Shown here piece by piece: positions 20,020-57,289 of a stretch of DNA of 64,000 nucleotides. Position 1 is the first letter of the stretch; every line of letters starts with the position of its first letter. The notes beneath the pieces were generated by a model, which saw nothing but the letters and a program-made list of their open reading frames with translations, made no database searches and was not told the origin of the DNA. Origin of the DNA: a virus; the IMG/VR virus record IMGVR_UViG_3300028042_000003, positions 42,166 to 106,165 of that record. One strand, given 5' to 3'. A program made the translations under genes and the position numbers.

Positions 20020-22768
20020 ATGAACTTTACAAAAACAGAAGTCGAACAAATGAGAATCGAAATGACCGAAGCTATGAACAAAGTAGCTAAAAAATATGGA
20101 GCAGTAGCTTCTTTCGGAGGTATTCGATATGGTCTTGAAGTGACCAGTAAGGTAACAATTTCAAAAAAGACTGAAGATCAGTACGGCGAATTTACACTTA
20201 CAAAAGCAGCTAAAACACTCAAAGATAGATTACCAGTAATGGGTCTAAAAGCAGATGTTCTAAATGAACCGTTTACGTTCAAAGGCGATACAATAGTTAT
20301 CAAAGGATACAACACAAGAGCTAGAGCGTATCCAATTGAATATACTAAGAACGGACGGAATTATAAATGTTCTGTTAGTTACATGAAAGATATGGTTATA
20401 GAGAACAGACCAGAGTTGTTCCTATGAGACCTAAAATCGGAGATGTTTTTGCGATAGACAATAAAGACCCAATCACATACCATATATATTTTCAGGTAAC
20501 TAAATTACCAAGAGGTGCCGTGCATGGTAAGGTAATAAAAGTCCTAAAAATGAACCACAGCAAAGATGATGTAGGTAAAGAAGTAGTATTTCCGAAGTAC
20601 GCTGTGTTTGGTGAGTTATCTGAAAGGTGGTACAACACTATCAGATTACCTAAATCTAAATACCCGGAGTATTACTTATGAGACCTAAAATCGGAGATGT
20701 TTTTGAGGTAGAAGGTGATGCACCAACTGGTCCATTTCATATATATTTTCAGGTAACTAAATTACCAAGAGGACACGTCCATGGCAAGGCACTAAAAATA
20801 CTCAAAATGAACCACAATAACTATAAAGTAGGTGATATAGTGGCATGGCCGAAACGAGCTTTGTTTGGTGAACTAACACAAAGATGGTATGATGTAACTA
20901 GATTACCTAAATCTAAATACCCGGAGTATTACTTATGAGAATAAAACCTATGAAAATAACTAAAATTGGGTTATACAAAACTAGATCAGGAGATATAACA
21001 GAAATTGTCGATATTCGTGACGAACATCTTGGTATTTGGCCTATTATTGACAAAGGTGGTTTTTCATATACCAGATATGGTGGGGCTTCTTCAAATTATA
21101 ATTCACAAGATGATAAACCAGCAGAAGAACACCACCGAGATGTTGATTTGGTAGAATACATATCACAAGAAACCCATCCGGAGTATTACCTATGAAACTA
21201 AATCAAACAAAAATAAATAAATTTTATCTAATTACTAGTGAATTGACCCAATGGAACAATGCTGTTGTAAAAATCACCAAAGCTTCAGAACAAAATCGGA
21301 AGTCTGTTCAGTTGGACGTTATATCCACTTCACATGGACTAGTAGAACTAGGCCCAACTGTTATCAGTATAGATTCCGTCATTGGTGAGCATGGAATTTA
21401 CACAGAAATTACCCAAGAAAAAGACCCAGAAAGGTTCCTATGAGATACGAAGACCTAGATAAATTAGAGGTTGGTATGATGGTATCAGTTTCAGCTAAAG
21501 ATGGTTTATTCACTGAACATCCAATCGGCATCATAGCAAAACTACAACCCAATAAATCTTACCAAGTAGTGGTAGACTTCAAAATCAAAGGCGTACCTTT
21601 CAAAATAACAGAAATTGATAAGATTCTATCAAAAGAAGAATACCCGGAGTACCATCTATGAGCTGGAGAACACTAGGCACCAAAGTTGATATCAGTGATG
21701 CTAAAATAGACCATATTTACCGTATTTGGACTGACGGTGGACGGTTCCAAGAACTAATAAGAATTACCAAATTATCCACAGACATCAAAACTCAAGATAA
21801 AAACGTACTATGTGAAACACTAGCAGGAGAACCAGGTTATCACATGGAGTGGAATGTTTCTGCTACAGATGGTGAATTTTTCTATATTGGGAATAAAGAA
21901 ACCCATCCAGAGTATTATCTTTAATGTGTTTGTAAGGTATATTATGTTATAATAGTAAAAGGAATAAAAATGACCAAACAAGAACAAGAACAAGAACCAA
22001 AGTTCAAAGTAGGAGAGTTATGGAGACCATACCCAATAGAGCATTGGTCTTTACAAGCAGAAGGTCGAACAGAAGACTTCTGTAAGGGCAAAAAATTCAA
22101 ACAAGGCTTGACTTTAGAAATGGTGGGAACAATAAAAAACCAAGAACCCATCAAAATAACCACTGTCAGGAATGATCATATAGTAGCTAATGATGGTGGC
22201 TTTTCATGGGATATGCACTCACTAGGGGAGAAGCTAACAATAGAAGAATACCCGGAGTATTACCTATGACTCGTATAGTAAAAAACCTTCAGGAACTACG
22301 GAAGCTATTGGTACCAGAAGCTGTTGTTGAACACTACGAAAAGGGAACTTACCAGTTCCCTTCACTTTTCCAAATTGAAGATGGTAGGTTTCTTGGACAC
22401 CAACAACTATCAACAAAGGGTAAAATGCACTCATATGAACAACTCGCAGACTGGGGCTTTGATACCAGCGAGATAGACCAATTTTACAAAAAATATCCGG
22501 AGTATTTATTATGAATGAAACAGATGAAATAGAAAAGTTACATAAAAAAATGAATATAAACTCAATGTATGGAAGCTATGGAAGCTATAGGGATACGATA
22601 CCTACAAGCGCAGCAATAGCAATGGCTGTACATAGAGCTGGGCTTTACGCTGAGATTCAAACAATCAAAAAACATAACCCATTATCAAAAGAAGATAAAG
22701 AACGAATAGCAGAACTAAAGAACGAAGTAAAACACCACGAATTATATTATCCGGAGTATTACCTATGA
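20020..22768 (+). other. Array 1: ten small ORFs ending PExxL-stop (20020-20427, 20424-20681, 20678-20938, 20935-21195, 21192-21443, 21440-21661, 21658-21924, 21970-22269, 22266-22514, 22511-22768)
   Basis: C-termini RPELFL, YPEYYL, YPEYYL, HPEYYL, DPERFL, YPEYHL, HPEYYL, YPEYYL, YPEYLL, YPEYYL; mostly ATGA stop/start overlaps. Confidence 0.9.
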
Positions 22769-23301
22769 TGGTATTTTCACAGATGCATATGTCCATCGTA
22801 AATGTAGCATTCTCATTTAGTCACAATGAACTAACTCACATCAAAGATAACAGTATAGAGAGAGACCAATACCTTTTCAAATATAAGAGGTGGGAAACCA
22901 TGCCATCCATGGATTTCAAATTTTTACTTTTACAATTGACTTACAAATACCATGCTAATAAATTTGATTTATTCAAGCTTCTAAATGAAATAACACCAGA
23001 AGAACTACAAGAACTGAAACTAGAAAAACAAAAAATCATTTTATATACAAAAACACTTCAAGAAGATATGGATCTACTCAAAACAAAAGTAATAACTCCA
23101 GCTTTGGTGTCGAAATTATTCACTAATAAAGAAATTTCTATATTGGGGTTTTATTATTATATGTGGCATTTCAAAGTAGCAAAAAAACTATCAAGAATTC
23201 AAGAAAGGAAACTAAAACAAGTCCAGCTATTTTTCAAATTTCTACCCAAAATTGAAAACCATATAGCTACAATTTACGAACGAAACCAACGTCAGATATG
23301 A
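22765..23301 (+). CDS. Putative helicase loader (T4 gp59-like)
   Basis: Size and position near clamp-loader and helicase genes; weak resemblance only (KLFTNKEISILGFYY). Confidence 0.45.
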   Translation: MMVFSQMHMSIVNVAFSFSHNELTHIKDNSIERDQYLFKYKRWETMPSMDFKFLLLQLTYKYHANKFDLFKLLNEITPEELQELKLEKQKIILYTKTLQEDMDLLKTKVITPALVSKLFTNKEISILGFYYYMWHFKVAKKLSRIQERKLKQVQLFFKFLPKIENHIATIYERNQRQI

Positions 23302-23354
23302 AAACTTTAAGAATAAAAGTGTATAATTAGTAATAAGAAAACAAAGGAATAAAA

Positions 23355-24293
23355 ATGTTATCAGTAAACGAAAAAGAATTTATTTGGATTGAAAAATACA
23401 GACCAAAAAATATCGACGATATAGTCCTTCCAGAAGCAGTAAAGAATGATGTGAAAGCATGGATAAAACAAGGTGAGATTCCTAACCTTTTGTTATCAGG
23501 TAAGATTCCTGGGACAGGTAAGACTTCTTTATGTCATACAATTATTGAAGAACTCGGAGCAGATGCTTTATTCGTCAATGCCAGTCTTGAGAGTAATATT
23601 GACCTACTAAGAAATAGAATACTTGGGTTTGTATCCACCGCCAGCTTTGATGATAGACCTAAAATTGTAGTTCTAGATGAAGCAGATTTCTTGAACCCAA
23701 ATTCTACCCAACCTGCCTTACGTGGATTTATTGAAAAGTTCAGTAAAAACGCTAGATTTATATTGACTTGTAATTATAAAAATAAACTAATTGAACCTCT
23801 AAGAAATAGACTTATTGAAATTGATTATGACGAGATGTACCAAAATAACAAAGCAGATATGCTAAAACAAACGGCAAAAAGAACCATAGAGATTCTGAAA
23901 AACGAGGAAATCAAATACGAAATGGCTGATCTAAAGTGGTTGTTGCAACACTTCTATCCAAGTAACAGAAAGATCATCAACTCATTACAAGAATACAGTA
24001 ACACTGGTGCTCTTTTGATAAACAAAGATGAAGCAGACCAGGACTCCCTAGCAAGCTTGGTAATTGAAAACATCATGAAAAAAGACTTCAAAGGTCTAAA
24101 AGCAACTATAGAAAAAACTGCTGATAGTTCAAGTATCTTCAGAATGTTATATGACCAAATAGAAACGTTTCCACTTGCGGTAAGACCACAAATCATAGTA
24201 TGTATTGCTAAATACCAAAGCTACGACAGCATGGTAAGGGACCGTAATATCAATTCAGTTGCGTGTGCTACTGAAGTTATGAGCATCATATGA
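23355..24293 (+). CDS. gp44: Sliding-clamp loader large subunit (T4 gp44)
   Basis: WIEKYRPKNIDDIVLP, GKIPGTGKTS Walker A, VVLDEAD Walker B, RFILTCN. Confidence 0.92.
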   Translation: MLSVNEKEFIWIEKYRPKNIDDIVLPEAVKNDVKAWIKQGEIPNLLLSGKIPGTGKTSLCHTIIEELGADALFVNASLESNIDLLRNRILGFVSTASFDDRPKIVVLDEADFLNPNSTQPALRGFIEKFSKNARFILTCNYKNKLIEPLRNRLIEIDYDEMYQNNKADMLKQTAKRTIEILKNEEIKYEMADLKWLLQHFYPSNRKIINSLQEYSNTGALLINKDEADQDSLASLVIENIMKKDFKGLKATIEKTADSSSIFRMLYDQIETFPLAVRPQIIVCIAKYQSYDSMVRDRNINSVACATEVMSII

Positions 24294-28928: not shown

Positions 28929-29699
28929 ATGAAATTATCAGTACCAACACCAACACTATTCCCAGAAGACAACTCAATACATGCAGAGCATCACTCATTA
29001 TTTTGGGAAAATAAACCCCATGAGATGTTACCACTAGGTGAAGAAGCACCAGGCTTTTTTGAAGAACAAAAACCATTTACGATTTTCAAACTATTCCTTG
29101 GCGACTTTGGAGAAAATGGAAACGGAATGCAGCGTATCATCAACAAACTACAATCAGCAAAACCAGAAGATGTACTTGAGTTTCATATTTCAAGCCATGG
29201 TGGATTTGTAGAAGAACTCCTTGAGCTTTATAACCTTTGTGACACTATGTTCCACGGTAAAGTAGTCACTTTCGTAAACTTTGGTTACTCAGCAGGTGGT
29301 TGGGCATTCCTAATTGGTAAAGAGAGAGTAGTATATGAACACAGTGACTTGATGTTCCACAGTTACTCAGGTGGTGCTTACGGTAAACGTGACGATATGA
29401 TAAACCATCTTGAGCACAGTGATAAAAGAATCAACACTTTCCTTCTTGGAACACTTGAACCTTACTTCACAAAGAAAGAAATTAAGAAAATGAATAAAGG
29501 TAAAGATTACTGGTTGAACAGTACACAAATGCTTGAGCGTGGAATTGCTACTCACATAATGCTAAAAGGGAAAATTGTCCCAGCAGATGAGTTCTTGAAT
29601 CCAAAGTCAGAAAAAGAAAAAGCTAAAGAAGCCAAAGCATTAGAAAAAGCAATAGCAAAAGCGAGAAAAGCAGCAGAAGCAGCAGCAAAGGTAAAATAA
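28929..29699 (+). CDS. ClpP-family serine protease
   Basis: FHISSHGG, GYSAGGWAFLIG (catalytic Ser), LMFHSYSGG (His), DYWLNSTQMLERGIAT. Confidence 0.8.
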   Translation: MKLSVPTPTLFPEDNSIHAEHHSLFWENKPHEMLPLGEEAPGFFEEQKPFTIFKLFLGDFGENGNGMQRIINKLQSAKPEDVLEFHISSHGGFVEELLELYNLCDTMFHGKVVTFVNFGYSAGGWAFLIGKERVVYEHSDLMFHSYSGGAYGKRDDMINHLEHSDKRINTFLLGTLEPYFTKKEIKKMNKGKDYWLNSTQMLERGIATHIMLKGKIVPADEFLNPKSEKEKAKEAKALEKAIAKARKAAEAAAKVK

Positions 29700-29911
29700 T
29701 GACCTACTCTCAAGAAGACCTCAGTAATTACCTAAGAGAAAAATACTTCAAAGATGACTACATGGGCTTCGGCCTGGAGTCTGGGTATTACACTCTTAGC
29801 GTAAACGGTAAAAAATATGAAATCAAAATAGAAACATTCCAGCAATACCAAGACCTCCAGGATTACGTAGAAACTGAATTCTTGAAAAAGTTCCCTGAAT
29901 TGTTTTTGTAA
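29699..29911 (+). CDS. Small PExxL-tailed protein (singleton)
   Basis: Ends KKFPELFL-stop and is followed by a promoter, not a coupled gene. Confidence 0.75.
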   Translation: MTYSQEDLSNYLREKYFKDDYMGFGLESGYYTLSVNGKKYEIKIETFQQYQDLQDYVETEFLKKFPELFL

Positions 29912-33798: not shown

Positions 33799-34038
33799 AT
33801 GTCACAAACAGATATGTCTGGCATGTTTCGGGATTGTTTTCAACTTGTAGGAGCGGATATGATAGAAGGTGTTTATACGTTTTCTGTTTCAGGTGAAACT
33901 ATAGAATTTAATCAGATAGAAATTGATAAACTAAAAATCCAAGACCCTTTGTTCACATTCAAAGATAAAGATATAAAAAACCTCAGGATAACAACTAACA
34001 ATCTAATGAAAGAACAATATCCCGAGTATTTACTCTAA
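33799..34038 (+). CDS. Small PExxL-tailed protein (singleton)
   Basis: Ends EQYPEYLL-stop; converges on a minus-strand gene, so nothing downstream is coupled. Confidence 0.75.
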   Translation: MSQTDMSGMFRDCFQLVGADMIEGVYTFSVSGETIEFNQIEIDKLKIQDPLFTFKDKDIKNLRITTNNLMKEQYPEYLL

Positions 34039-43440: not shown

Positions 43441-45032
43441 TTGCCAAACCAGAATTTGATATCAACAAAATCAATGCTGGTGATACCGTCAAATGGAAAG
43501 ACTTAGGTGGAACGATATGGAAATCTCAGGTTATTGAAGTCAATTTGAAGCTTGGTACTGTCACTGTTGATTATGTCAACAGTTCAATAATTCTGTTAGC
43601 TTATAGAATACTTGACTGGTACACTAAAGAATCTCATCCGGAGTATTACTTATGATAATAGGAAGAGAAAGAATAGAAATAAGAAAAGTAAGAATCAAAT
43701 CACTGAAGCAAATCATAATGGACTCCAAAGGATTGTTACATGACACCCAGGTTAGACAATCAACTATAGACCAGAGTTCATTAGTTTTTGTGCCAGAAAT
43801 GGAACATCTATGTGGAACTGTTATTGATACCAATAGCTTATTTACTATTGGTAGCATCAAAGCTTGGAAAATAGATGAGTGGATGATAGCAGAAGAAATC
43901 ACCCAAGAAGATTATCCGGAGTATTACCTATGATAAAAGCAGACCTAATACACAAACATTGGTATCACGTCAGGTTGGGTATAGGACCTGAGGTAGTACC
44001 ACTACAACACGCCAAAGCATACGGGCCACCTAATACTGCTTGGTTTATTGGACCTAAAAAAAGTGTTCATATAAGCAGAATAGTAAAACATCTCTCACCA
44101 GATGATTACCCAGAATATTATCTATAAAGGAAAATTATGTCAAGAAATCTTATACTAGAAAGAAATGTAGGAACTTATTACTCCGTCAATGATGAGCTTT
44201 ATATTTTAGAAACATTTTCAGATGACCCAAGCACAGTGGTAGGAAGTTTGAGCTATCCAGGTCGGTTATTCAAAATGCATACCGTTTACCCAATAGTGCT
44301 TAGGGTTAGCAAAAATGGAATTACTGCTAGTGGGGATACCGCGTTTGAAGAGAATAAAGAAACTCACCCAGAACATTACCTCTAGGTTTAATGTTCGTGT
44401 AAGGTATATTATGTTATAATAGTATAACAAGAAACAGAAGGAGAACATATGAAACAAGGAATAATAAATCAACAGAATTTAGTATTTATTGAGTCAGCTT
44501 GGTATAATACGGTAGGTTTTGTGTTAGCCCAAGATGCTATTACCAGAGAATACAAATGCTACACCCACAAATTAGGTGGTGACCGTAATGACGATTACAC
44601 AGAAGATCAAGATATCAATAAGATACTTGCACATGGGAGTTACTTTCCACTTGAAGCGGCGAAAGCAATTTTTGCTTATGACACCAATAAGGATTTCATT
44701 TACGAAAATCCAGAATTATATCTATAAAGGAAAATTATGAAACTAAGACTAAAATACAACAAAATACTAGACTCATACTACATTGAGGAAAACTATGGAT
44801 TCTTCTTTTGGTCGCATGTTCAAGGACCATCGTTTACAATCGAGCCAAGACCAAATAGCGATAAAAAGTTAGTGTTCCCAGATCTACCAAGACCGTCAAT
44901 GCCAACTTTTGATGGTGGGTGGTACTTCAAAAACTATGACATAGCTTTACAAGGAATGCGAGATATGCTAACAGAATGTGAAAAAGCCAACGCAAAAGCT
45001 AAAGCCCACAAAATTACCAAAATGGAGACAAA

Positions 45033-45527
45033 ATGCTAACAAATTTACTAAGAAATGTACCAGGCTCAATCACTTGGATGGTTGTAGTATCAATCTTGAT
45101 GTGGTTCTTTACTTTTCAACTGGGTATCGTTTTAGTTTTGGTCATAATGACCTTCCTTGTTTGGGGTGGAGCAATAGAAGGCCTTCACTTAAATGACGTA
45201 AATTATGGTCATTTTATGCTTCTCGTTTCACTGTCGGTAATTGGCGGTTGGTCTTATTACAAAATTGATACATTCGTAGAATATAACAAAATAGTATCTG
45301 TTCAAAAAGGAACAGATTATAATGTCACGTATGACATAAACTCAGATAACATTACCATAAGACTAGCTACTAAACATAAAATAGTAAAATCTATAACAGT
45401 AAGCAAAGACAACCTAGAAAGAATAAAAGACATCACAGATGGTAAGTTCACCCTAGAAAGAAGAAAGTACAGTACATGGTATTCCCAAAACCTCGGGTTC
45501 GAAACTACATTCAAAATGGATAAATAA
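45033..45527 (+). CDS. Membrane protein with three predicted TM segments
   Basis: Hydrophobic N-terminal ~80 aa. Confidence 0.6.
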   Translation: MLTNLLRNVPGSITWMVVVSILMWFFTFQLGIVLVLVIMTFLVWGGAIEGLHLNDVNYGHFMLLVSLSVIGGWSYYKIDTFVEYNKIVSVQKGTDYNVTYDINSDNITIRLATKHKIVKSITVSKDNLERIKDITDGKFTLERRKYSTWYSQNLGFETTFKMDK

Positions 45528-48482
45528 TGAACAATTACACCCAAGAAAAAACTAGACTTTTATTGGTAAATCAAATATCAATAAAAACATTAGCAGATCA
45601 CATCCAAAGTGGTGGATATCTAACAAGTCCATTTATGGAGCTTTTCAAAGATTATCTAAATGAGGTGTCTCCAGTGATGTTCCCTTTAGCTGTTCCACTT
45701 GGAATTATAGAAATCTTAGTGTTGAAATATCGTCTAAAAAATGTAAGACAAAAATACCCAGAAAGGTTCCTATGAAAATATTTGGCATAATAAAAAGAAC
45801 ACCTAAGTTCCTAAAAGACACCATCGGTGCATTCACAAAAGAGTGCATAAAGGACTTGTCAAAAGAAGAATACCTAGAGGTCAAAGAAGCTTTTGTAATA
45901 ACACAAGACCAATCACCTAGAGAACAAATAAGAGAAAGTTACAACTTCGGTTGGTTTGGTGAAAATTTAGCTACTGGAGTTATGCAGCTAATGATGTGGT
46001 TTTATGGGTACAAAGCTTGGAGATTTGAGAAAAAATACCCAGAGGAATTACTATGAAAATTGACATTCACTCTACTGACCACCAAAAGTTCAGAGAAATA
46101 GTTTTTGGTGGGTATACTATAAAAACTTACGAAGAAGCTAAGAATTTTGTCAAAGAACTCGAAGGAGACTCAGATGTACAAGAAAATGGATTGTATAATG
46201 CCCTAAGAAACCCAAAAGATAAAAAGATACTAACTTTTTTTCTTTTTATCTTTCTGAAACTAATGATTATCTTTTTAGTATATAAAATAAATAAATTCAG
46301 AAAAAAATACCCAGAGGAGTTATTATGAGAATAAATTTTATAGACCGTGAAAATCCAGAAATGAGTGATTTTTTCATTAGGACAGAAAACATCGCCCAGG
46401 ACATTCCAACAGAATCAAAAACTGGTCTTCTCGAAGTTTGGAAAAGTGAGAAGCTCCAGGAGTACAAAGAAAGAAACATCAAAATACGCGCTTTGGTTGC
46501 TCAAAATAAAGAAACCCTAAAAGAAATAAAAGAAGGGTTCAATGAATTCGTCAAGGAAGAATACCCGGAGATGTTCCTATGAACCTAAAAGCCCTAGAAA
46601 CTCAAATTGTTGATGTATTATCATCTACGCCAACCAATACAACAGGTAAAGCAATTGGTTCGATGTCGACTGAAGAGATAATCCAAGAGTTCAGAGTAGC
46701 TTGTGAGCAAAATCTTGATGTAACTAGGGAATTTATTCTAGTTTATGTGAATCTAAAAAACCCAGAAGCCCAAGAAATAATCCAAGTGGAGTACCCGGAG
46801 TATTTCCTATAACCTTCGTGTAAGGTTAGGTGTGTTATAATAAGTAAAAAAAAGGAGCACCAGTGAAAATAAAAGTAAATGACAGAATCAAAATAAAAGA
46901 TGGTGTTTACTATGTTGAAGATAAGGTTGGTATTGTCAATCATGTGTACAAAGACGAGATACGATGTGATTTTCTTTACACAAAAGGTGACACCCAAAAC
47001 CTAAGAGTAGATCGCAACGATATAGAAGAACATCTAAATAAAGAAACCCATCCAGAGTATTTCCTATGATAGAAGCTATTCAAGGAAACATTTACAGAGT
47101 CAAACTAAGAGAAAATGAACCAGAGGAAAGCTGGATGTTGTGTACAAAAACAGTCAAAACAAAGTATTATTTTGACATACTCAAAACAAATTGTGGTTGG
47201 GAAACTGTAAAGAAAATTTGGTACACAAGAAAAAACTTCAATGAAATTCATGATGTGATTGAAGTTTTCAATCCAACAGATTACCCAGAGTATTTTCTAT
47301 GAGACAAGTAAAAGTAGGAAACATCTATAAAAACCGCTGCGGTCAAGTAGTGAAAATAACCAAAACGAGTGATGAGTTAGCAGACGTGGATGTAATAAAA
47401 AGTAGTAAAAATTTAGACATGGAGCCATATAATTTTTGGATGGCTTCTGGTTCAAGGTGTGATTCAAGCTTATTAGAAATACCACTACACAAACAATCGG
47501 ATGATGATGTGCTAATAGACCAAGTACTAACAAAAGAAGATTATCCAGAATATTACTTATAAGGACTAAAATGGACGAATACAAAAAGAAAGAATTCAAA
47601 AGGTGGACCCAAGCTAAAGTCAACGATGTGGTTGTGTACAATTATGACCCAGAAGAAGACAACACAAACTACATCGGATTGATAAAAAATATCTCCCAAG
47701 AGGGTGTGTACATTGATGATCTTTATTGTATAGAAAATAAAGACGAAAATATAGAAGAACAAATTCTAATAAACGAAACAAATGTAGATATATTTATTTT
47801 GGTAAAGGTATTGTATAACCACAAACCTTTACTAGAAACCATCCAAGAAGATTACCCGGAGTTTTTCCTATGAGACCAGGCGAAGTGTACAGAAACAGAA
47901 GAGGAGACATCGTCCAAATTATGGCAGTAGATAACGATCTTGCGCATCTTGAAGTTATAAAATTCAAGAACCCCAATCAACCTGGACCAAAAAGGTATAA
48001 TTTTTGGTCAAAATCTGGGTCGAGATCATATGGAAGATATAATCACCCAAACGACATCATTGAGCGCCACCAAAAACAAGAGGATGTAATATTGATTATC
48101 TTATCAAAAGAAGATCATCCGGAGTATTACTTATGATAGATAACTTCAAAAAATGGCAAGACCTAAAAGTAGGGGACGTCGTTCTTTACCGATACGACCC
48201 AAAGGATTCAGATGTTTTGTTTATTGCTTGCATCACTGAAAAAACAGAAGAAAAGGTAGAGTTTTATGATATTCATTCGTTTTCTGAATATCTAGAGCCA
48301 GAACCAGAGGTGTTTGTAAACGCTGTGAATGAAGATCATTTTATTCTAGAAAGGGTACTCATGCAAGCACCTTCTATTTTATCGGTGGTAAAAACAAGAT
48401 TTCCGGAGTTATTCCTCTAGGTTTAATGTTCGTGTAAGGTATATTATGTTATAATAGTACATAACAAATAAAAAGGATACAA

Positions 48483-49901
48483 ATGAAAACACAAGAAACT
48501 AAAAATTTACCAATTGATAGAGGACCGTACGAGGAAACTTTTGTCAATATGATGAGTTCACCTAAATATGTACAACAACACTTTTATGCGTTCGTAATTG
48601 CTAAAATGCAAGTATCGATAAACAGAAGTGTTCCAACAGCAGGTGCTGGGTTTTATGATAATAACTATCAATTAGTTATAAATCCAGACTTTTTCAACCC
48701 ACTGCCACTTGAGCAAAGAATGGGTATTCTAATCCACGAAGTAGATCATATTATTTTACAACACCTTGGAAGAAAAGGTGAAAGAGATCATAAATTATTC
48801 AACGTGGCTTGTGATATTGCATTGAACCAAATGATACCAAAAGATTGGTTACCAGATGGTGCTTTATATCCAGAGACTTTCAAATTACCAGATGGTAATT
48901 TTTGGCCAAAAGATCTAACAGCTGAACAGTATTACCAATTAGCTAAAGACGAGAAAGATAAGCAAGAGAAAGAAAAAGACGACCAAGACACAGAAGAAAA
49001 ATGTGATAACTGTGGTGGTTCTGGAGAAGAGCCACAAGACGGTGACCAAGAAGGCGAAGAAGGCGAAGGTGAAGGCCAAGGCGAAGGTGAAGAAAAAGAA
49101 GGTAAAGAACCTTGTAAAGAATGTCAAGGTACAGGTGCTAAACCTGGAACTGGATTCCAACCATCAAATGGTAACCCTAACCTTACTGGACAAGAAGAAA
49201 TCACTATTGATTCACATGATATGTGGGATAAAATGTCAGACGAAGACCAAGAAATGGCTAAAGAGATGATGTCAAAAACATTAGAACAAGCTATGGAAAA
49301 GTCAAGAGGTAACGCTCCAAGTAACATTGAAATGATTATGGAATTATGGAGAAAGAAAGCTAAACTTAGTTGGAAACGTATTTTGAAAAAGTACCTTTCA
49401 AGTAAAAAGGGTCAACGTGTAGCAACAATCAAGAAGAGAAACAGACGTATTAGAACCCTTGGAGTCAAAGGTTCAAAAACAGCGTATGATACTCCAGAAG
49501 TAGTTGTTGGTCTTGATACCAGTGGTTCAATGAGCAACGAAGAAATTGCAGAAGCTTTAGTTGAGATCAACGAAGTATGTAAAATTTCAAACAGTAACTT
49601 GAAATTGGTTCAAATTGACACTACCATAAAAGGTCTAGAAGAGTATGACCCTAAAAAGAAAAACTTCAAAAGACGTGGTTGTGGTGGTACTTACATGGGC
49701 GCAATGGCTAAATTCTTGAAAGATGAAAAGATAAAGTATGATGTGCTAGTAATGATCTCAGATATGTACATTGAAGATGTATCAACAGATGAGAACTGGA
49801 AAGGTCTCAAAAAACCAACACTATGGTTGAACACAAGTGGCGCCGATGTTGAATGGGATGGTCTAAAAAACCACAAAATTTATAACATTAGTGATGCGTA
49901 A
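48483..49901 (+). CDS. VWA-domain protein with N-terminal metallopeptidase-like HExxH domain (MoxR partner)
   Basis: ILIHEVDHII...FNVACDIALNQ; VGLDTSGSMS MIDAS; GCGGT; SDMY. Confidence 0.85.
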   Translation: MKTQETKNLPIDRGPYEETFVNMMSSPKYVQQHFYAFVIAKMQVSINRSVPTAGAGFYDNNYQLVINPDFFNPLPLEQRMGILIHEVDHIILQHLGRKGERDHKLFNVACDIALNQMIPKDWLPDGALYPETFKLPDGNFWPKDLTAEQYYQLAKDEKDKQEKEKDDQDTEEKCDNCGGSGEEPQDGDQEGEEGEGEGQGEGEEKEGKEPCKECQGTGAKPGTGFQPSNGNPNLTGQEEITIDSHDMWDKMSDEDQEMAKEMMSKTLEQAMEKSRGNAPSNIEMIMELWRKKAKLSWKRILKKYLSSKKGQRVATIKKRNRRIRTLGVKGSKTAYDTPEVVVGLDTSGSMSNEEIAEALVEINEVCKISNSNLKLVQIDTTIKGLEEYDPKKKNFKRRGCGGTYMGAMAKFLKDEKIKYDVLVMISDMYIEDVSTDENWKGLKKPTLWLNTSGADVEWDGLKNHKIYNISDA

Positions 49902-52900
49902 TGAGAATCCAAGATAACCAGGTATACAAAACGATTGGTGGCAATATGGTAAAGGTCACCAAATCGGACAAACCAGGGGACTCTTTATGGCCGTTTAGTG
50001 GTACCATCAATGATGTATTCATTACCTGGAGCATTATGGGATGTGCAAGTGCTCAGATAAACTCTCCCAGCAGTACCCAAGAAGCTTATCCCCATAACCA
50101 TAATTTAGTAGAACACCTAAAACAAGAAGAATACCCGGAGTATTACTTATGATTGAAAATGCGCTAAATAGTCAGCTAAAACCTGGACTTTGGAAGATAG
50201 AGTGGGACGGAACTGTTGAACACTTCGAGCATATTGTTGAGTGTCGTTTGATATCAAACAGAAAAAGACTAAAAACACTGAAACAAGTAGCCGGTAAGCT
50301 AAATGAAGAATATTACAATAACTGGTCGTTATCAAGAAACATGGAGGCCCAAGCAACATATATTGGACCAATAGAAAATTACCCGGAGTATTACTTATGA
50401 GATTCACAAAAGATGATATTGGTACATTGGTAAAGGTCTATGATAATCTCCAGCATGAAACATACTATCCAATAATTGAAGGCTTTGATGATAGCGAGTT
50501 ACCAATGAACTTGTCAGTAAATGGTGAAGATTGGTTATCGTTCAACATAAATGGAAGATGGGGTGAATTTGAAATCACAAAAATCTACCCAAAAGAAAAA
50601 TATCCGGAGTATTACTTATGAGAAAAGAAAGACCAGAAAAATTTACAAAAGATGATATCAATTTAGTAGTTCAAGTAGAAGTTTACGACAACGACGAATT
50701 GAATCACTCTATAACGGCTGAGATAGTTGAGTTCAATATTGACAATGGTGAGAATCACCCATTACGGGTCAAAGATATCAATTCAGGTTCTGGGTTTATA
50801 CTAAAAGATGATGGTACATGGAAAAATGAATCAAGCAATTTATTCATTGAGATCACAAAAATATATCCAGAAGACAATTACCCGGAGTATTACTTATGAG
50901 ACAAAAACCAAAAAAAGGAGACTACATCAAAACACTAAATGGCATAGCTAAAGTTTATGAGGTTCATACCGCCAACGGAGCAAATCCCGTTTATGCGTAT
51001 GCAGTTAGATTCCTGGAGTTTCAAGACACCAGTGTAATACCTGCGTCTGCTATTCTTGAAGTTCTCAACTTAGATGATTACCCGGAGTTGGTGTTATGAG
51101 AATGTTCAAACCAGATGAAGTATATCTACTAAAGAATAACAAGATTGCTACCGTTGTAAATGTATTTTCTTATTCGGTAGACCTATTGATAGATGGAAAG
51201 ATTGTGATTTTTAGTAGTTACGGTGAAAATAAGATGGAAAATTACCGAAACCCAAACCTTGGGTTTGATTATGGTATTGTTGGCACAATCAACCTGGAAG
51301 AATTCCCGGAGTACCAATTATGATTGCTAATATTGGATGGATACTAGAATTCAAAAATGAGTTATGTGAAGTTATTGATATAGATTATTTCGAAACCGAT
51401 GAATATCTTATTAGAATAATCTCAGACAAAAGAGAATTTAGAGTAGGTGGATCTGAACTTAGACCACCTGACCCAATAAAATACCCGGAGACAAGTTTAT
51501 GACAGAAGAATTTATCGCTACATCAAATCACAGCAAAATACCAGCACCTATTTTGCTAAAGTTTTCTATTATTGGTATTGATGTTTATTCAAACCTGAAC
51601 ACCAAAGGAACAGTAGCTAATTTTTTTAGAAAAAAGGCTACATCAAAAGGTGAATACCCAGATGGTAATCATATTGGTTACATTCAATACGAAAACGTCA
51701 ATGACCTATACGAGATCTTTGCGGCAAGATACCCAGAGGAGACACTATGAATCCACCCATCCAAACTGACATCATAAGAGCAAATAGTCAGACCATAACA
51801 AGCATATCCCAACTTTATGTTGGTGTTTTGCTTTTAGAAAATAAAATGATCGCCGAGATAACAAAAATATCCAAAGATGGAATTGCTTTTGTGGTAGTCA
51901 ATGACGATTCAACAACCCCTTGGAGTCGAGGTCAAAACGGAACAATCAACACAGAACAATTCCAAGAAACTCTAAAGGCAGGTGACCATACGATGGTTAT
52001 AATAGGCAAAAAAGAAGATTACCCAGAGTTTTACCTATAAGGACAAAAATGAAAAAGAAAAAACTAAGATATGAAAGATACGCTAAGTTTATGGAACCAG
52101 AAGAATACAGAAGAATCAAACCTGGAGACATTATCCTTTATAGAGCTGATTTTATTCAATTATCCAAAGCTAAAGTTGCTTCGGTATGGGGTGGATGGGT
52201 TCTTATCAAAACAAACCATTGGCAAAAGCGTGTATATTTTAGCCAAATAGCAAAAGTTGTAACAAGACAATACCCAGAGGAATTACTATGAAACCAGAAC
52301 ACTACAGAGAGCATGACCTAAGACCTGATTCGGTTTCAATGAAAATTTTTAGGAACTTAGACTCATTAGATTGTATCGTAGCAGGTGGATACTGCTTATC
52401 TAAAGTTCAACGATTATACGGAAACCTTGCTTCTGAATATAATGATATTGATGTTTTTGTTCTAACGCAAGAAAGCTACAATGAAGTTCATAAAGTTCTT
52501 TCTAAGCTTGGTGTTTTAGATTATGATACCATATTAGCTGCTTCTTTTACTGTACAAGAGATAGGCCAAATGCGCCAAAGTGTTCAACTCATAAAACCAT
52601 TTAGGGATGTTTCTAGCTATGATGAGCTAATAGAAGACTTTGACTTGGATAATAGCAAATACTGGACTTATGCACCATGGAACAAAATTTACACAAAACA
52701 AGCAAACACTAGACTTCATGTTGTCACTCCAAATAAAAAAGTAAAATGGAATTATCACTTCTTAGAAAGAATGTTGAAATACCAAAACGAGAAGAAACTC
52801 CAACTGGATTTTGACCAGTATCCTCAGTTACTTGGTCTAATAAAGAGCACCAATAAAGAAAGATACAATATGGGTCCAACAGAATACAACCCAAAAGATC

Positions 52901-53229
52901 AAACAAAATACCACCTGGATAATGTATTATTAGAAATGATCAAAGAGGTTCTCAAAACAAGAAATCAAATCAGCAAGAAAATAGATAAAGAAACCCAAAT
53001 GGGAAAAGCTGGTTATATGCATCTCCAAAGAATTATGGAGCGATCACATGATATGCTAAGTTTATCTAGTGTTTCTATTTTCTTGTTTGATTACTGGGCC
53101 CAAGAGGAATGTCATACTGCTAAAGGGAATGATCTGGTTGTGGCACTTGGAGCAAAACTATCAAGCAAAAAATATTATCTAGCAAATCTAGGTAGGGTAA
53201 AAAGAACATACCCTGAATTATTATTATAA
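49901..53229 (+). other. Array 3: eleven consecutive ORFs ending PExxL-stop (49901, 50149, 50397, 50618, 50896, 51096, 51320, 51499, 51747, 52049, 52288)
   Basis: C-termini YPEYYL x4, YPELVL, FPEYQL, YPETSL, YPEETL, YPEFYL, YPEELL, YPELLL. Confidence 0.9.
52288..53229 (+). CDS. Nucleotidyltransferase-superfamily protein (CCA/poly(A)-polymerase head-like) carrying the PExxL tail
   Basis: IVAGGYCL...EYNDIDVFV (GG..DxD), VQLIK, IEDFDLDNSK. Confidence 0.65.
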   Translation: MKPEHYREHDLRPDSVSMKIFRNLDSLDCIVAGGYCLSKVQRLYGNLASEYNDIDVFVLTQESYNEVHKVLSKLGVLDYDTILAASFTVQEIGQMRQSVQLIKPFRDVSSYDELIEDFDLDNSKYWTYAPWNKIYTKQANTRLHVVTPNKKVKWNYHFLERMLKYQNEKKLQLDFDQYPQLLGLIKSTNKERYNMGPTEYNPKDQTKYHLDNVLLEMIKEVLKTRNQISKKIDKETQMGKAGYMHLQRIMERSHDMLSLSSVSIFLFDYWAQEECHTAKGNDLVVALGAKLSSKKYYLANLGRVKRTYPELLL

Positions 53230-53299
53230 AAAGAATTTCAATAAAAGGCTAGGTTTAATGTTCGTGTAAGGTACTTTATGTTATAATAGTACATAACAA

Positions 53300-53333
53300 G
53301 AAGAACTAGTAAGAGTTACTAGACAGACTTCAT
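53300..53333 (+). other. Conserved 5'-UTR stem-loop, copy 2
   Basis: GAAG-AA-CTAGTAA-GAG-TTACTAG-ACAGA-CTTC-AT upstream of the AAA ATPase RBS. Confidence 0.6.
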
Positions 53334-53350
53334 ACTAATAAAGGATAAAA

Positions 53351-54466
53351 ATGAAAATTTCAAAAATCAAAGTAGCTATGGATATAGCACAAGCAGCAAA
53401 TGATAACGTACACATGATTGGACCACATGGTATTGGTAAAACTGAATACGTGAAAGCGTGGGCAAAAGAAAAAGGTTATCACCTTGAGGTATTACAACTT
53501 CCAATTCTTGAGACATCAGATCTTATTGGTATGCCTGATATTACTGAAACAGAATTTGGAAAAGTTACTGTGTTCGCAAAGCCTGAATGGTTAGTTCGTA
53601 TGGACCAAGCAAACAAAGCTGGTAAGCACTGTGTAGTATTTATGGATGAACTTGGTCGTTCGAGTATGGAAATTAGACAAGCGTCTCTTCAAATTGTACT
53701 TGAGAAAAAAGTTTCAGAACATGCACTTCCAGAGTTAGATGGTATCCAGACATTATGTGTCGTTGCCGATAACCCAAGTGATACTTATGATACAGCTGAC
53801 TTTGATGCAGCACTTGAAGATAGATTCCAAACTTACCCAGATATCACAGCAGATATCAAAGACTGGTTGAAGTATGCCAGAGAAGTTGGTGTTGAAGCAG
53901 TAGTAACTGACTTCTTAGCAGAATACCCAGAAAACTTACACTTTGTTGATGAGTCAGATGGTGAAAAGGGTTCAAGCCCAAGAGCGTGGAAGAAACTCTC
54001 AGACGGTATGCAAAAATGTACAGATAAAGGGTTCATGAGAACACTTATCGTATCAAAAGTTGGTAAAACAGTAGGTTCAAGTTTCAATCACTTTTTCAAC
54101 AACTACATTGATATTGTAAAACCTGAAGATGTACTTGAGAATATCGGTAAAGCGTCTATCGCAACTGAGAAAGACCAAGAGAAAGCGGCTAAAAAACTTT
54201 CTAAGTTGACTAAAGGTATCGAGGTTATCTCAGCACAAGAGTTAGCACAGAAAATTATCGCTAATATCAAAGAAAACAAAGAAGGTTTCACAAACGAGAC
54301 AATGATTGTTTACTTGGCTTCTATAAACCTTGAGACTGCAGCAGCAATCCTAAAAGGTTGGAAAGATGGGGACAAAGAAGAAACTGAGTTTTACTACGGT
54401 GGATTCATAAAAGGACAGCCTAACAAATGGTTGATTCGTAAAATTACTTCTAAAGTAACACAGTAA
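53351..54466 (+). CDS. MoxR-like AAA+ ATPase
   Basis: GPHGIGKT Walker A, ETSDLIGMP, VFMDELGRS Walker B, ADNP, FDAALEDRF, SPRAW. Confidence 0.88.
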   Translation: MKISKIKVAMDIAQAANDNVHMIGPHGIGKTEYVKAWAKEKGYHLEVLQLPILETSDLIGMPDITETEFGKVTVFAKPEWLVRMDQANKAGKHCVVFMDELGRSSMEIRQASLQIVLEKKVSEHALPELDGIQTLCVVADNPSDTYDTADFDAALEDRFQTYPDITADIKDWLKYAREVGVEAVVTDFLAEYPENLHFVDESDGEKGSSPRAWKKLSDGMQKCTDKGFMRTLIVSKVGKTVGSSFNHFFNNYIDIVKPEDVLENIGKASIATEKDQEKAAKKLSKLTKGIEVISAQELAQKIIANIKENKEGFTNETMIVYLASINLETAAAILKGWKDGDKEETEFYYGGFIKGQPNKWLIRKITSKVTQ

Positions 54467-56469
54467 TGAAGTGGGGTATAAACCCACCGAGGTTCGCAGG
54501 TAGTCAAGTTTACTACCGGGACTTGGTGGTTTTTGCTGTGCAAGAAAATTCAGTTATAGGAGCAGAAAAGTTTGACCTTGACGGTTTTTCAAAACCAATG
54601 TCGACTTTAGATATTGAATTCAACCCTCTTTTGACAACAGAATTCAAAGAGATTCAACACCCAGTTGAAAACATCACAGATAATATCGTTCGGACTACTT
54701 GGTTGTTCAACAGTAAAGAAGAAGCATTTATTCAAAAGGTAGTCTTATTGGCTCATATCAAAGAGTACTTTTACAAAAAACAAATAGAAGATAAGAAATA
54801 CTTCGATACCAAAATACCTAAAGATATCAACACAAAGCTAGAAAAATTACAAGAAAAATACCCAGAGGTTATGTTATGATACACGCAAAAGTCAATACAG
54901 CACTTAGGTTATCAGAAATTTTAGGGTTGAATGTACGATATAATTCAGCTGAAAACCTTTATTTTATACAAAAACTAGATGAGTGTATAATTGTTCCAGC
55001 TGATAAACCTCAAGTGGGTGTTCTTAGATACCTAAAAGAACACCACCCAGAGGTAACACTATGATTCCAGAATCATTGAGCCCAAGAGACTATCAAATTG
55101 GTAAATGTTATCTAGCTAAATGGAAAGATAACAGAAAAGATCTTTGGATTTTTGCACCCATTGAAAAACATGACGTTTATATTACTTGCAAAGACATAAT
55201 AATTCTAAAGGGTGATACACCAATGGATGAATATGATATTTATTATGATACCAATAACGCATTTGAAATTGTAAAAGAAGTATCAAAAGAAACCCATCCG
55301 GAGTATTTCCTATGAAATTTGTCCTAATACAGCCAAAGGAATGGTTCGAGAAAAATGCATACGAAGACGAAGACGGAGATTATTGGGGATCAGAAAAACA
55401 GTATAAAGCATATAAAAAAGAACTAAATAAAGACTCCCATGATTCAGAAAAGTTACATAAATTATCTACCTACTTTTGCTTAGACAATACCCTTTTGGAC
55501 GACTGGTATGGTATTGTTGATATTACCAATGAGCAAAAGCAGTATTACGAATGGGCAGTAAAGAAAAAGCTCCCAAAATCTAAATACCCGGAGTATTACC
55601 TATGAAAAAACACGATATTATCAAACTATCAAGCCCAACTTTTGAGGGTGTTGGTATCGTCATTAGAGCCTCTGGCACTGCAATTAGTTGTCGAACATTA
55701 CACCAAATAACCGAACGAAGACCTACCGATAGATTTGTCTTCTCAACGGATGACGTAAATATCAAGTTTGAAATCCTACCTAAAAAAGATTACCCGGAGT
55801 ACCACCTATGAAAAAACACGAAGCACCAGAAAACCAACAGCATCTTTTCGATACTGAACTTTTCGCATACAGACGGAAGTCACCTACTTATGCTAAATTC
55901 ACCATAGAAGATATACGCGGCTTACCTGAAAATGGTTATGGTTCTGTTGTTACTCTTGTTGTATCAAAAAACGGTAACCGAAAGAAAACGCTTTATACTG
56001 TTCAGTTTGCTTGTGAGCTTACTGATTGGGGTTATAAGTTATTCAGTACCAAAAATAAGTGGAGCACCAGTTTAGGTGAACACTTCCAAAAAATGGAAGC
56101 TTCAAAAGAATACACCAATGATGCAAGAACCACCTCATCGTATAAAAAAGAACTACAAGAAAACAAAGACAGATTCCCGGAGTACTGGTTATGAGCATGA
56201 TAGACGTGACAGACATGAAATCACTACAAGATGGCTTACCGACGATAAAGGAAGGTGATGTGTTATCCATAATGTGGAATGATGGAAACCAAGAAATAAT
56301 CGCAGAAGTGATGGTATCATCCACAACTGGAATAAGAACAAAAGACCTAAGAGTTCTACAAGGTAAAAAAAGCTACAGTAAAATTGGAGCTAGAGGTTTC
56401 TATGAGAATCTTGATACACACTATTATAGATCAATCGATATAAAAAAATACCCGGAGTACATATTATGA
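54466..56469 (+). other. Array 4: seven consecutive ORFs ending PExxL-stop (54466, 54876, 55061, 55312, 55602, 55808, 56191)
   Basis: C-termini YPEVML, HPEVTL, HPEYFL, YPEYYL, YPEYHL, FPEYWL, YPEYIL. Confidence 0.9.
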
Positions 56470-56657
56470 TACAAATAAACAAAACTTACCAATACAATAA
56501 AAACGATTTACAATTTACCTTTAGAATTTTCTCGGAGGGGAAGCTGAGTTACCATATCATTACCGAAACTTTTGATTTGTATAAAGTCTCAAAAACAGAA
56601 ATGATAAATAACTTACAAAACAAATATATTCATTTATATAATAAGGAAACCAAATGA
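56466..56657 (+). CDS. Hypothetical protein (untagged)
   Basis: Coupled to the preceding gene by an ATGA overlap. Confidence 0.5.
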   Translation: MIQINKTYQYNKNDLQFTFRIFSEGKLSYHIITETFDLYKVSKTEMINNLQNKYIHLYNKETK

Positions 56658-57055
56658 AAATAAAAACAACAGACTTATGGAAACATATCGGAGAAATAAT
56701 CCTGGTTCCAGAAGACCAAAGATATGATATAGACGAAATGGATGAAGTGAACTTACCAAGAGGTACATACCAAATAGTAGAAGTACATGACTTTGGTGCG
56801 TTATTTTATGACATCGCGAATAATGTTTTAGTAGATGCCGATTATCTACAAGATACAAGTTTCACCTGGATCATAACACCACCAATGGAAAGACTTGAAC
56901 TTCTGGAAGATGCGTTGACTAAGCACATTCTTGGGTTATCGGCTGAGGGTTGGAAAGAAATAGAAAACCCAACTGAACACAGCCTAGACTTGACTCCGCT
57001 TTTAGCTAAACTCAAAACGGTTCAAATTATGAGAAAAAGTATCGAAGAGTTATAG
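56654..57055 (+). CDS. Hypothetical protein (untagged)
   Basis: AAGGA RBS; ORF within the operon. Confidence 0.6.
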   Translation: MKIKTTDLWKHIGEIILVPEDQRYDIDEMDEVNLPRGTYQIVEVHDFGALFYDIANNVLVDADYLQDTSFTWIITPPMERLELLEDALTKHILGLSAEGWKEIENPTEHSLDLTPLLAKLKTVQIMRKSIEEL

Positions 57056-57289
57056 ATGGCACTGCACAAAACAAACCAACCCAAAACCACTGAAATCGTT
57101 GTAACTTTTATTAGTAATGACGAAATGAAGAGATATGGGTGGGATGAGTACAGACATGATTTCCCTGAAATTGTCAATAGGAGACATTTCATTTATAGAA
57201 AGAATGGCACATTCCTTCCGGCGTACATGGTAAAGAAAGAATACACTCTAGAAGAAGGTCAGGAGAAGTTCCCTGAACTATTTCTGTAG
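57056..57289 (+). CDS. Small PExxL-tailed protein (singleton)
   Basis: Ends EKFPELFL-stop, followed by a promoter. Confidence 0.75.
   Translation: MALHKTNQPKTTEIVVTFISNDEMKRYGWDEYRHDFPEIVNRRHFIYRKNGTFLPAYMVKKEYTLEEGQEKFPELFL

Follow-up and report, generated by a model that had tools for sequence, protein, structure and literature searches.

Short C-terminal peptides that address different proteins to a common partner are well known and include the ssrA/ClpX degrons, the SSB-Ct tail (DDDIPF-COOH), the clamp-binding tails of the T4 gp45 system, and the acidic tails of T7 gp2.5 and gp4; in these systems, one partner reads the tail and the free carboxylate matters. Here, we analyze a tail of this general kind in a 64-kb stretch of viral DNA (hereafter, the window), which covers positions 42166 to 106165 of the 125,228-bp IMG/VR viral contig IMGVR_UViG_3300028042_000003 (designated G000) and in which 49 plus-strand open reading frames (ORFs), located between window positions 20020 and 57289, end in PExx[L/I]-stop. 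The principle of one terminal tail and one reader is thus already known, and so is the placement of one short terminal peptide on different proteins. However, the known hub-read tails differ in sequence and are found on a handful of related proteins, whereas the tail described here is carried by 25 to 50% of accessory genes. We searched the literature for the tail strings, YopX, coupling, and small-protein motifs and found neither a description of this tail nor one of any tail that is present on such a share of accessory genes across unrelated phages and is associated with both a Gad2-like enzyme and a MoxR/VWA-zincin pair.

The genes that accompany the tail bring to mind two other groups of systems. 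The vWA-MoxR “ternary” conflict systems, known from computational prediction, combine a zincin with small variable proteins that have a conserved FxSxx-COOH end (Haft and Basu 2011; Kaur, Burroughs, Iyer and Aravind 2020, PMC7159879), and VWA/MIDAS sites capture a peptide or an acidic ligand of the client (PMC7159879). As in those systems, the proteins in question here are small, diverge fast, share just a C-terminal peptide, and are encoded together with a zincin, a vWA domain, and MoxR, and the logic proposed for both is capture or processing of the peptide by that machinery. However, the tail has the form [YHF]PExx[LI] rather than FxSxx, RxD, or an acidic sequence. The FxSxx-COOH systems are bacterial, mostly actinobacterial, and comprise one or a few precursors, often with radical-SAM partners, whereas the genes considered here are phage-borne, a single protein combines the zincin and the VWA domain, and tailed ORFs account for up to half of those in a region. 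The MoxR-VWA chaperone pairs NorQ/NorD, CbbQ/CbbO, and RavA/ViaA, as well as the Rea1 MIDAS (PMC13036017, PMC9976466, PMC4660213), likewise bring together a MoxR-class AAA+ ring and a VWA protein with a DxSxS..T..D MIDAS, and their known clients are held on MIDAS by an acidic ligand. In NorQD, the C terminus of the partner docks on the post-sensor-1 loops of MoxR (PMC13036017). The known pairs then use ATP to remodel the client (PMC7159879, PMC13036017). In contrast to the phage genes described here, these pairs serve one dedicated client complex (for metal insertion or Rubisco activation) and include neither a zincin domain nor a proteome-wide tag. We know of no tail-like motif in any MoxR-VWA chaperone pair.

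A preliminary description of the window, made from the sequence alone, had listed 49 ORFs with this tail in four arrays and three singletons, and our ORF scan reproduced that list exactly. The encoded proteins comprise 48 of 60 to 137 amino acids (aa) and one of 313 aa; 48 of them end in Leu and one (42466-42723) in Ile. The entire contig (125 kb, 35% GC) encodes 59 tailed ORFs (58 with Leu, 1 with Ile), which make up approximately 30% of its cleaned set of 197 genes. The strict C-terminal placement claimed earlier holds as well: 59 of the 82 PExx[LI] matches in these 197 genes are exactly terminal, compared to 0.11 expected from the internal rate (binomial P = 5.6e-141). So does the absence from core genes, as the tail is seen in 57 of the 94 genes of up to 140 aa but in only 2 of the 103 longer ones, and in 59 of 152 plus-strand genes but in none of the 45 minus-strand (structural/virion) genes. 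The informative stretch extends over the last 10 to 13 residues. Its consensus consists of a hydrophobic residue at position -11 (or -13/-10), K/Q at -9, E at -8, Y/H/F at -6 (Y36/H12/F7 among the 59 tails), and then P, E, Y/L, Y/F, and L; in its general form, hydrophobic residues at -13/-10 are followed by [KQR]-[EK]-x-[YHF]-P-E-x-[YFL]-L-COOH. A near-terminal but nonterminal PExx[LIVMF] is found in one G000 gene only. The sole near miss of the kind is the 169-aa product of 19226-19735, which ends with ..FAIYPEFYSK, that is, with YPEFY and two extra residues but without the terminal Leu, and is conserved in the Vibrio phage phiKT1024, in the jumbo contig G001, and in T4 (E values from 1e-11 to 3e-29).

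The bodies of the tailed proteins have little in common. With the last 12 residues cut off, the 59 G000 proteins form no more than 7 BLASTP-linked pairs, in agreement with the earlier view that the bodies are unrelated apart from a few paralogs. Neither a PHROG nor a Pfam search with the 49 tailed proteins of the window yielded a convincing family: there was no PHROG match, the Pfam matches did not rise above noise, and, with regard to the SH3/KOW-like openings suggested earlier, one of them was a weak hit to KOW (E = 0.004). The link to YopX, suggested from an ENPELL ending ascribed to that family, failed, as 0 of the 49 proteins match that family (PF09643) at E ≤ 0.01. By eye, the bodies are variously beta-rich, helical, or, in some cases, built as a hydrophobic helix followed by basic residues, suggestive of membrane proteins. 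A comparison of 334 tailed ORFs from all genomes and loci produced 296 body clusters, 270 of them singletons, which, together with the differing body types, rules out a single diverged paralog family. Thus, the tail is a portable module on otherwise unrelated small proteins. The small tailed genes turn over extremely fast between relatives, and megablast of the tail arrays against cultured phages produced no match. A single-sequence AlphaFold2 (AF2) model of one of them (47299-47562) had a pLDDT of 39.5, too low to use.

The constraint on the tail lies in its amino acids. A 4-nt ATGA overlap (xTA-TGA) with the next gene is found at the ends of 35 of the 49 window tails and 39 of the 59 in G000. 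At these overlaps, CCR-GAG sits 8 nt before the next ATG, and the Pro-Glu codons supply a GGAG Shine-Dalgarno sequence; the usual ribosome-binding site in G000 is AAGGA, 6 to 7 nt upstream. ATGA-overlap translational coupling with an upstream, in-gene Shine-Dalgarno sequence is a familiar arrangement, and the 39 junctions conform to it, with an SD-like GGAG/GAGG 5 to 10 nt before an overlapping start, a combination that is not seen at the other 20. However, coupling explains the choice of codons and not that of amino acids, and the tail is kept without it. Against a background usage of 5% CCG for Pro and 24% GAG for Glu, the overlapping tails use CCG in 25 of 39 and GAG in 36 of 39 cases, whereas the nonoverlapping ones are at the background level (2 of 20 and 7 of 20, respectively), and yet their P and E are just as invariant and the final Leu is spread over all six codons. 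In phiKT1024, 48 of the 81 tails have no overlap, and the Ile codons ATA, ATT, and ATC are found 18, 17, and 5 times. The ATGA overlap constrains the last codon only to NNA, and nevertheless the residue there is always Leu in G000 and Ile in phiKT1024; the 17 untagged ATGA junctions of G000 end variously in K, I, L, V, T, A, Q, or P. Free synonymous variation, the invariant P and E, and the background codons in the absence of overlap show that the tail peptide is under purifying selection and that selection acts on its amino acid level. Since the 20 tails without overlap keep P, E, and L, serving as a Shine-Dalgarno sequence is a secondary use of the tail codons, through dual coding, and not the cause of the tail. 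Loss of the motif wherever the DNA junction changes, which would have argued against a protein-level module, did not occur.

We scanned IMG/VR with the DNA pattern of the tail, which retrieved close relatives of the window phage as well as very different tailed contigs. The window phage itself belongs, as a distant member, to the T4 superfamily; its PolB is 42% identical to that of the cultured Vibrio phage phiKT1024, and there are further matches to baseplate, DnaB-like helicase, and major head proteins. The contigs include G002 (40.7 kb; 18 tailed ORFs, all with Leu), G001 (224 kb, 28% GC; 38 tailed ORFs, 31 with Ile, 4 with Leu, and 3 with Val), and G003 (56 kb, 44% GC; 25 tailed ORFs, 16 with Ile, 7 with Leu, and 2 with Val). 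Phage phiKT1024 (191 kb, 35% GC) carries 81 tailed ORFs (70 with Ile, 7 with Val, 3 with Leu, and 1 with Phe), all of which are annotated as “hypothetical.” Other cultured carriers are the Vibrio phages Pv27, Va1, and phiTY18. In contrast, T4 has no tails among 736 ORFs (149 of its 169 kb were read), despite its abundant small overlapping early genes, and neither does Campylobacter phage CP220 (140 kb read). Carriers of the tail range from 25% to 45% in GC content, and the tail persists where the bodies are only 31 to 40% identical. They are not confined to the T4 superfamily: the non-T4 Logan contig SRR14954404_13844 (loci L189, L191, and L192), reached via its Gad2-like nucleotidyltransferase, has 40 tailed ORFs out of 85 in 38 kb. 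It is syntenic with Alteromonas phage AD45-P4 (KF005319; loci L057 and L058) in rIIA, Gad2-like, UvrD, PolA, and RNR genes, and both encode DUF2201 and MoxR. Yet AD45-P4 has 3 tails in 100 kb, which indicates that tail libraries can grow or collapse fast.

The terminal residue is characteristic of the genome, being Leu in G000 and G002 and mainly Ile in phiKT1024, G001, and G003. A further variant is seen in a lineage (loci L063, L064, L065, and L085) whose DUF2201 proteins are 42 to 43% identical to that of the window and in which many ORFs, mostly nonoverlapping, end in [YFNH]-P-Q/H-x-x-I. Three genome-wide states can thus be distinguished, namely (E,L), (E,I), and (Q/H,I). Where a protein family has members in more than one genome, the tail of each member is of the type typical of its genome rather than of the family, as shown by the matched pairs NNPQYFI and KFPENFI, NHPQYFI and NNPERFI, and FPHRLI and MPEMSI. 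DNA homogenization does not account for these coordinated states, since tail copies within one genome vary freely at synonymous sites, and their coordination across unrelated families suggests one common trans-acting factor.

One phage gene pair accompanies the tail. In tblastn searches with approximately 196 G000 genes, only DUF2201 and MoxR proved common to phiKT1024, G001, G002, and G003 while being absent from T4. G000 shares 15 genes with G001 and 5 with G003, both of which were found through the tail DNA pattern, compared to 18 with the tail-less T4. Neither DUF2201 nor MoxR is present in T4 or CP220, and the phyletic pattern of MoxR is that of DUF2201. The DUF2201 protein (48483-49901, plus strand) consists of a zincin metallopeptidase domain with the HExxH motif, an acidic Gly-rich linker, and a VWA domain with an intact MIDAS (DxSGS..T..D). 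It matches both PF13203 (E = 6e-23; 82.3 bits, with a cut-off of 23.2) and PF09967 (E = 4.8e-9; 36.8 bits, with a cut-off of 26.4), which, with HExxH and MIDAS, places it among the DUF2201/COG3864 zincin-VWA proteins; residues H85, E86, H89, D345, S347, S349, T403, and D427 are invariant in an alignment of six diverse DUF2201 sequences (A2). The product of 53351-54466 (plus strand) is a MoxR-type AAA+ ATPase, judging by the Pfam AAA_5 match above the cut-off (27.0 versus 22 bits) and the VWA gene partner, and matches PHROG 1297 “ATPase.” DUF2201 homologs are found in 148 of 50,697 phage records. In viral contigs, loci with close homologs have 15, 14, 10, 9, and 7 tails nearby, and those with distant homologs have none. 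Among the 25 genomes and loci covered by profile searches, every tail-rich one encodes a close DUF2201, as well as MoxR where the fragment reaches far enough. The expectation that tail-rich SRR14954404_13844 would have the pair was borne out, with DUF2201_N and AAA_5 domains found 17 to 26 kb upstream. A related-locus search with the MoxR protein alone retrieved one distant locus, which is tail-free. Within the pair, all 13 “E-type” and all 3 tail-poor phages have Lys at position 273 of DUF2201, whereas two “Q/H-type” sequences have Gln there; in the latter, Lys359 of MoxR is replaced by Phe or Tyr. These changes could be charge-matched to tail position -4; they represent a single evolutionary event and are not significant. 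A complex prediction for DUF2201 (472 aa, with Mg and Zn) and the tailed 47299-47562 protein had a score of 0.24 and a mark of 0.34 and speaks neither for nor against an interaction.

The only tailed family conserved over eight phage lineages, including AD45-P4, is the ~300-aa protein encoded by 52288-53229 (plus strand; 313 aa in the window phage, ending with ..RTYPELLL), a Gad2-like nucleotidyltransferase (NTase). Gad2, known from SPbeta-like phages, is an anti-Gabija protein with an NTase domain (Yirmiya et al., bioRxiv 10.1101/2023.05.01.538930). Like Gad2, the window protein and its relatives are phage-borne, carry the precomputed Pfam label PF26128 “Gad2” in the protein database, and have NTase motifs and the NTase fold; they are only remote relatives, however, and we do not extend the anti-Gabija activity to them. 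The motifs GG..S, DxD, and FDLxxS are present, with G33, G34, D53, D55, and D119 invariant in alignment A3. The AF2 model has a pLDDT of 80 to 95 over residues 10 to 140 and low confidence in the C-terminal half; Foldseek matches it to class II CCA-adding enzymes and TENT5 (E = 6e-7, probability 1.0), and the tail is modeled, with low confidence, as a helix that kinks at the Pro and leads into a second, short one. A PDB sequence search with the NTase gave no match, a search of viral contigs for related loci with its alignment added no new ones, and a tblastn search with a single Gad2-like query retrieved the phiKT1024 group only.

The tailed NTase adjoins MoxR in G000, phiKT1024, G003, L067, L078, and L190, and homologs with 40% and 31% identity still end with FPELLL and YPEALL, respectively. 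When 1.84 billion representatives were searched with a profile, 2,762 relatives emerged; among the best 150 of these, 114 end in P[EQH]xx[LIVMF], which makes the tail a native hallmark of this Gad2-like NTase subfamily, and approximately 22 more end in [YF]AEYFI, with Pro replaced by Ala. In a 1.4-kb ENA contig (L185), an NTase of the latter subgroup is directly followed by a small ORF that ends with ..KPEEFI, so the NTase tail and the small-protein tails of one genome need not match. The likely Gad2 homolog Goe11_c01130 (397 aa) of an SPbeta-like phage is tail-free and is not detected by the profile of the tailed subfamily. More generally, the Gad2-superfamily NTases of four phages without the module, SPbeta-like Goe11, Streptococcus thermophilus SW17, Vibrio 495E54-1, and Aeromonas 2L372D, have neither a tail nor tailed neighbors; a tailed NTase without the module, which could have refuted the connection, did not turn up. 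The proposed Gad2-like origin of the tail, its Q/H variant, the phyletic test, and the non-T4 carriers all appear to be new.

Amino acid constraint, portability, coordinated lineage states, and co-occurrence with DUF2201 and MoxR are features of the data; from here on, we infer what may bind the tail, which protein that would be, and what would become of the client. That some common partner, of whatever kind, reads the tail in trans is probable. To this extent, the shared docking tail of the preliminary description stands, in line with the coordinated variants, but of the partners it had considered, a packaging route, ClpP, and the clamp find no support. The MoxR/DUF2201 module is our leading candidate for the common reader, with a likelihood that falls somewhat short of even. 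With much the same reserve, we see in the tail a transferable docking peptide that depends on a free C terminus and would most likely be read by this MoxR/VWA-zincin module. By analogy with the MoxR-VWA pairs, the tail would dock its bearer on a machine formed by the phage MoxR AAA+ ATPase and DUF2201, the zincin domain of which could additionally clip the client. The strict terminal position of the tail suggests that its alpha-carboxylate is read. The switch from Glu to Gln or His in one lineage argues against the Glu side chain as the MIDAS ligand, a role that the alpha-carboxylate could still play. The ancestral client may have been the Gad2-like NTase with its native tail, which would then have spread in several lineages onto dozens of fast-evolving small early proteins. 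These would plug into the same machine for activation, clipping, hand-over of bound host targets, or timed disposal, and the “effector library” proposed earlier may be a fitting name for them. Recruitment of the Pro-Glu codons as the Shine-Dalgarno sequence of the next gene would be secondary, and because of it the tail would cost little to maintain and could spread easily. In the most specific version, which we consider more doubtful, MoxR and the VWA-zincin recognize one C-terminal peptide to handle both a Gad2-like antidefense NTase and a library of dozens of small early proteins, by activating them, by clipping them, or by employing them as adaptors for the delivery of host targets to the peptidase, with the peptide and its reader coevolving at the L/I tip and at E/Q/H in position -4.

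Several points weigh against assigning the reading of the tail to this pair. The interaction of DUF2201 and MoxR with the tail is a prediction from sequence. The co-occurrence of the pair with the tail could partly reflect shared ancestry, as the statistics ignore kinship, and the tail-rich fragments L072 and L081 are too short to show MoxR. Close versions of DUF2201 and MoxR are present with 0 to 3 tails in the N4-like AD45-P4 and in loci L073 and L080, and distant versions without any tails are found in PBS1, Aeromonas phiA019, and Moorella MTATph1. Overall, the pair looks necessary but not sufficient for tails. In addition, the otherwise invariant Glu is replaced by Gln or His in one lineage, the lineage-specific states could just as well be due to a host factor, and the Gad2-like NTase co-occurs with the tail almost as well as the pair does and could itself be the reader.

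The host-factor explanation, in which a host AAA+ protease, chaperone, or hub protein reads the tail as a docking peptide or degron and the link to the phage pair comes from ancestry or is indirect, has several facts in its favor: many bacterial C-terminal degrons have a hydrophobic end, the lineage-specific tail states could track different hosts, and phages with close DUF2201 and MoxR can be nearly tail-free. The ssrA degron, for comparison, ends in LAA-COOH, and at the sequence level the hydrophobic end is all that the tail shares with known degrons. We consider this explanation unlikely, as it does not account for the presence of the same phage gene pair in every tail-rich genome across very different groups, nor for Gad2-type NTases being tailed only alongside the pair, and no host candidate emerges. 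If the Gad2-like NTase were instead the reader or writer, its own tail would fill a groove in cis or within an oligomer, and the small proteins would dock there, either to regulate it or to serve as its substrates, for instance, for nucleotidylylation. The tail is a hallmark of the NTase subfamily, including the approximately 22 Pro-to-Ala variants, the enzyme is present in most tail-rich genomes, and protein-modifying systems with the NTase fold exist, such as MntA/HepT. On the other hand, no Gad2-like gene was detected in the 224 kb of G001, which has 38 to 39 tails (this contig is 85% complete, so that the absence of the gene is not conclusive); the tail has no conserved nucleophile, given that position -6 can be Phe and positions -3 and -2 vary; an enzyme bearing its own substrate motif would be unusual; and the C-terminal half of its model is of low confidence. 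All this makes the idea improbable. A still less probable explanation requires no partner at all, in that the tail would be a generic C-terminal helix-kink-turn that stabilizes small proteins or hides their ends from proteolysis. Pro-Glu is a favored helix N-cap, the low-confidence AF2 model of the NTase has a helix-kink-helix at this place, and the hydrophobic residues at -13, -10, -6, -2, and -1 could pack on any body. However, the bodies are of different types (beta-rich, helical, and membrane), in-step switches from E to Q/H and from L to I over unrelated families are unexpected without a trans factor, and the exact terminus, with one near-terminal case, fits carboxylate recognition better.

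Two further explanations place the cause in the DNA. In one of them, which we consider very improbable, the tail is a functionless legacy of cassette shuffling, acquired by inserted genes because the junction DNA is a recombination site. It is true that many boundaries have near-identical junctions of ~21 to 30 nt (one of these has 12 further matches), that tandem paralogs have identical ends, and that small genes turn over very fast between relatives, and recombination may well be how the tail spreads. But the synonymous sites vary while P and E never do and the terminal residue hardly ever does, which points to purifying selection rather than homogenization, and the persistence of the tail at low body identity and across the range of GC contents speaks the same way. 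The other explanation, that the tail is a by-product of translational coupling, i.e., GGAG, an 8-nt spacer, and ATGA read in the upstream frame, would account for the 39 overlapping tails with CCG/CCA-GAG 8 nt before ATG and for their enrichment in CCG and GAG. We give it hardly any credence, as it is contradicted by the codon data: nonoverlapping tails (20 of 59 in G000 and 48 of 81 in phiKT1024) use background codons, the Q/H lineage is unable to encode GGAG, an ATGA that forces nothing but NNA does not explain the choice between Leu and Ile, and neither the 17 untagged ATGA junctions nor the T4 sequence read has such a tail.

In the window, array 1 (20020-22768) comprises 10 tailed ORFs that start at 20020, 20424, 20678, 20935, 21192, 21440, 21658, 21970, 22206, and 22511, most of them joined through the 4-nt ATGA overlap; the genes at 20424 and 20678 are tandem paralogs, and some of the start calls (such as 22206) may be too long. 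Array 2 (42466-48420) contains 18 tailed ORFs in three runs, with starts at 42466 and 42733; at 43437, 43652, 43879, 44137, and 44449; and at 45527, 45772, 46053, 46325, 46579, 46863, 47066, 47299, 47571, 47870, and 48133. It is interrupted by the untagged genes 42991-43440, 44737-45039, and 45033-45527 and includes the paralog pairs 42466/42733, 47299/47870, and 47571/48133, as well as two bodies, 46053 and 45527, with a transmembrane helix predicted by eye. The DUF2201 gene is the first in an operon with array 3 (49901-53229), whose 11 tailed ORFs start at 49901, 50149, 50397, 50618, 50896, 51096, 51320, 51499, 51747, 52049, and 52288, the last one being the Gad2-like NTase. Similarly, the MoxR gene is the first in an operon with array 4 (54466-56469), which has 7 tailed ORFs (54466, 54876, 55061, 55312, 55602, 55808, and 56191) and an ATGA overlap at every junction. 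All four arrays and the three singletons are on the plus strand. The singleton 29699-29911 (70 aa, ..KKFPELFL; tail codons CCT GAA ... TTG TAA) lies directly upstream of the DNA polymerase gene and does not overlap it, so its tail is maintained without a role as a ribosome-binding site. The singleton 33799-34038 (79 aa, ..EQYPEYLL; CCC GAG ... CTC TAA) is convergent with minus-strand genes and has no downstream plus-strand gene, and 57056-57289 (77 aa, ..EKFPELFL; CCT GAA ... CTG TAG) has no overlap either.

A promoter-like element, GTAAGGTATATTATGTTATAAT, is found at 48434-48455 on the plus strand and in nine other copies on the same strand, at 19975, 21932, 28881, 32663, 42425, 44399, 53266, 60488, and 63415. 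It consists of an extended -10 and a conserved upstream box, and its 10 matches in the window compare to 0 expected by chance; six more TGTTATAAT sites have no upstream box. GTAAGGTATATTATGTTATAAT probably represents a phage-specific promoter class, and array 3 is putatively cotranscribed with DUF2201 from the 48434-48455 site. Since copies of the element stand ahead of the tail arrays and of the DUF2201 and MoxR operons, the putative tailed clients and their putative reader may well share one transcription class. We found no evidence for capsid targeting or packaging as the role of the tail and reject this idea, since the tail is found only on plus-strand genes behind this early/middle-type promoter-like element and never on the minus-strand genes of the structural block.

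Four window proteins have a second common terminus, which is acidic with a Trp tip: IQIDEW in the 88-aa protein 19695-19961, EEIDIW in the DNA polymerase (29955-32639), VELDEW in the 536-aa protein 58110-59720, and ELEEIW in the 131-aa protein 61533-61928. It is found on the polymerase and a gp33-like protein, is possibly the clamp-binding tail of this phage, and is a better candidate for that role than the PExxL tail. On the minus strand, two adjacent 389-aa genes, 40025-41194 and 41209-42378, the first of which matches the PHROG “major head protein,” have similar C termini (..ESIIKP and ..DKLIKP), suggestive of a tandem capsid gene duplication. Following the last tailed ORF, the block 57340-63072 contains several genes in common with the distant G001 (57340-58113, E = 3e-80; 58110-59720, E = 5e-25).

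Most small early phage genes are orphans that offer no handle for study. In several unrelated groups of marine phages, including cultured Vibrio phages, a quarter to a half of such genes share one peptide, so that one peptide reagent might suffice to pull down the partner and one fusion tag to test the pathway. The function of the phage MoxR and DUF2201 genes, hitherto unexplained, would become testable, and the tail system is connected to a known family of antidefense enzymes, Gad2. The tail is also a clean natural case of dual coding, with one stretch of DNA encoding a protein motif and at the same time providing the ribosome-binding site of the next gene. If the proposed reading is true, the tail would represent a widespread and previously undescribed phage “addressing system.”

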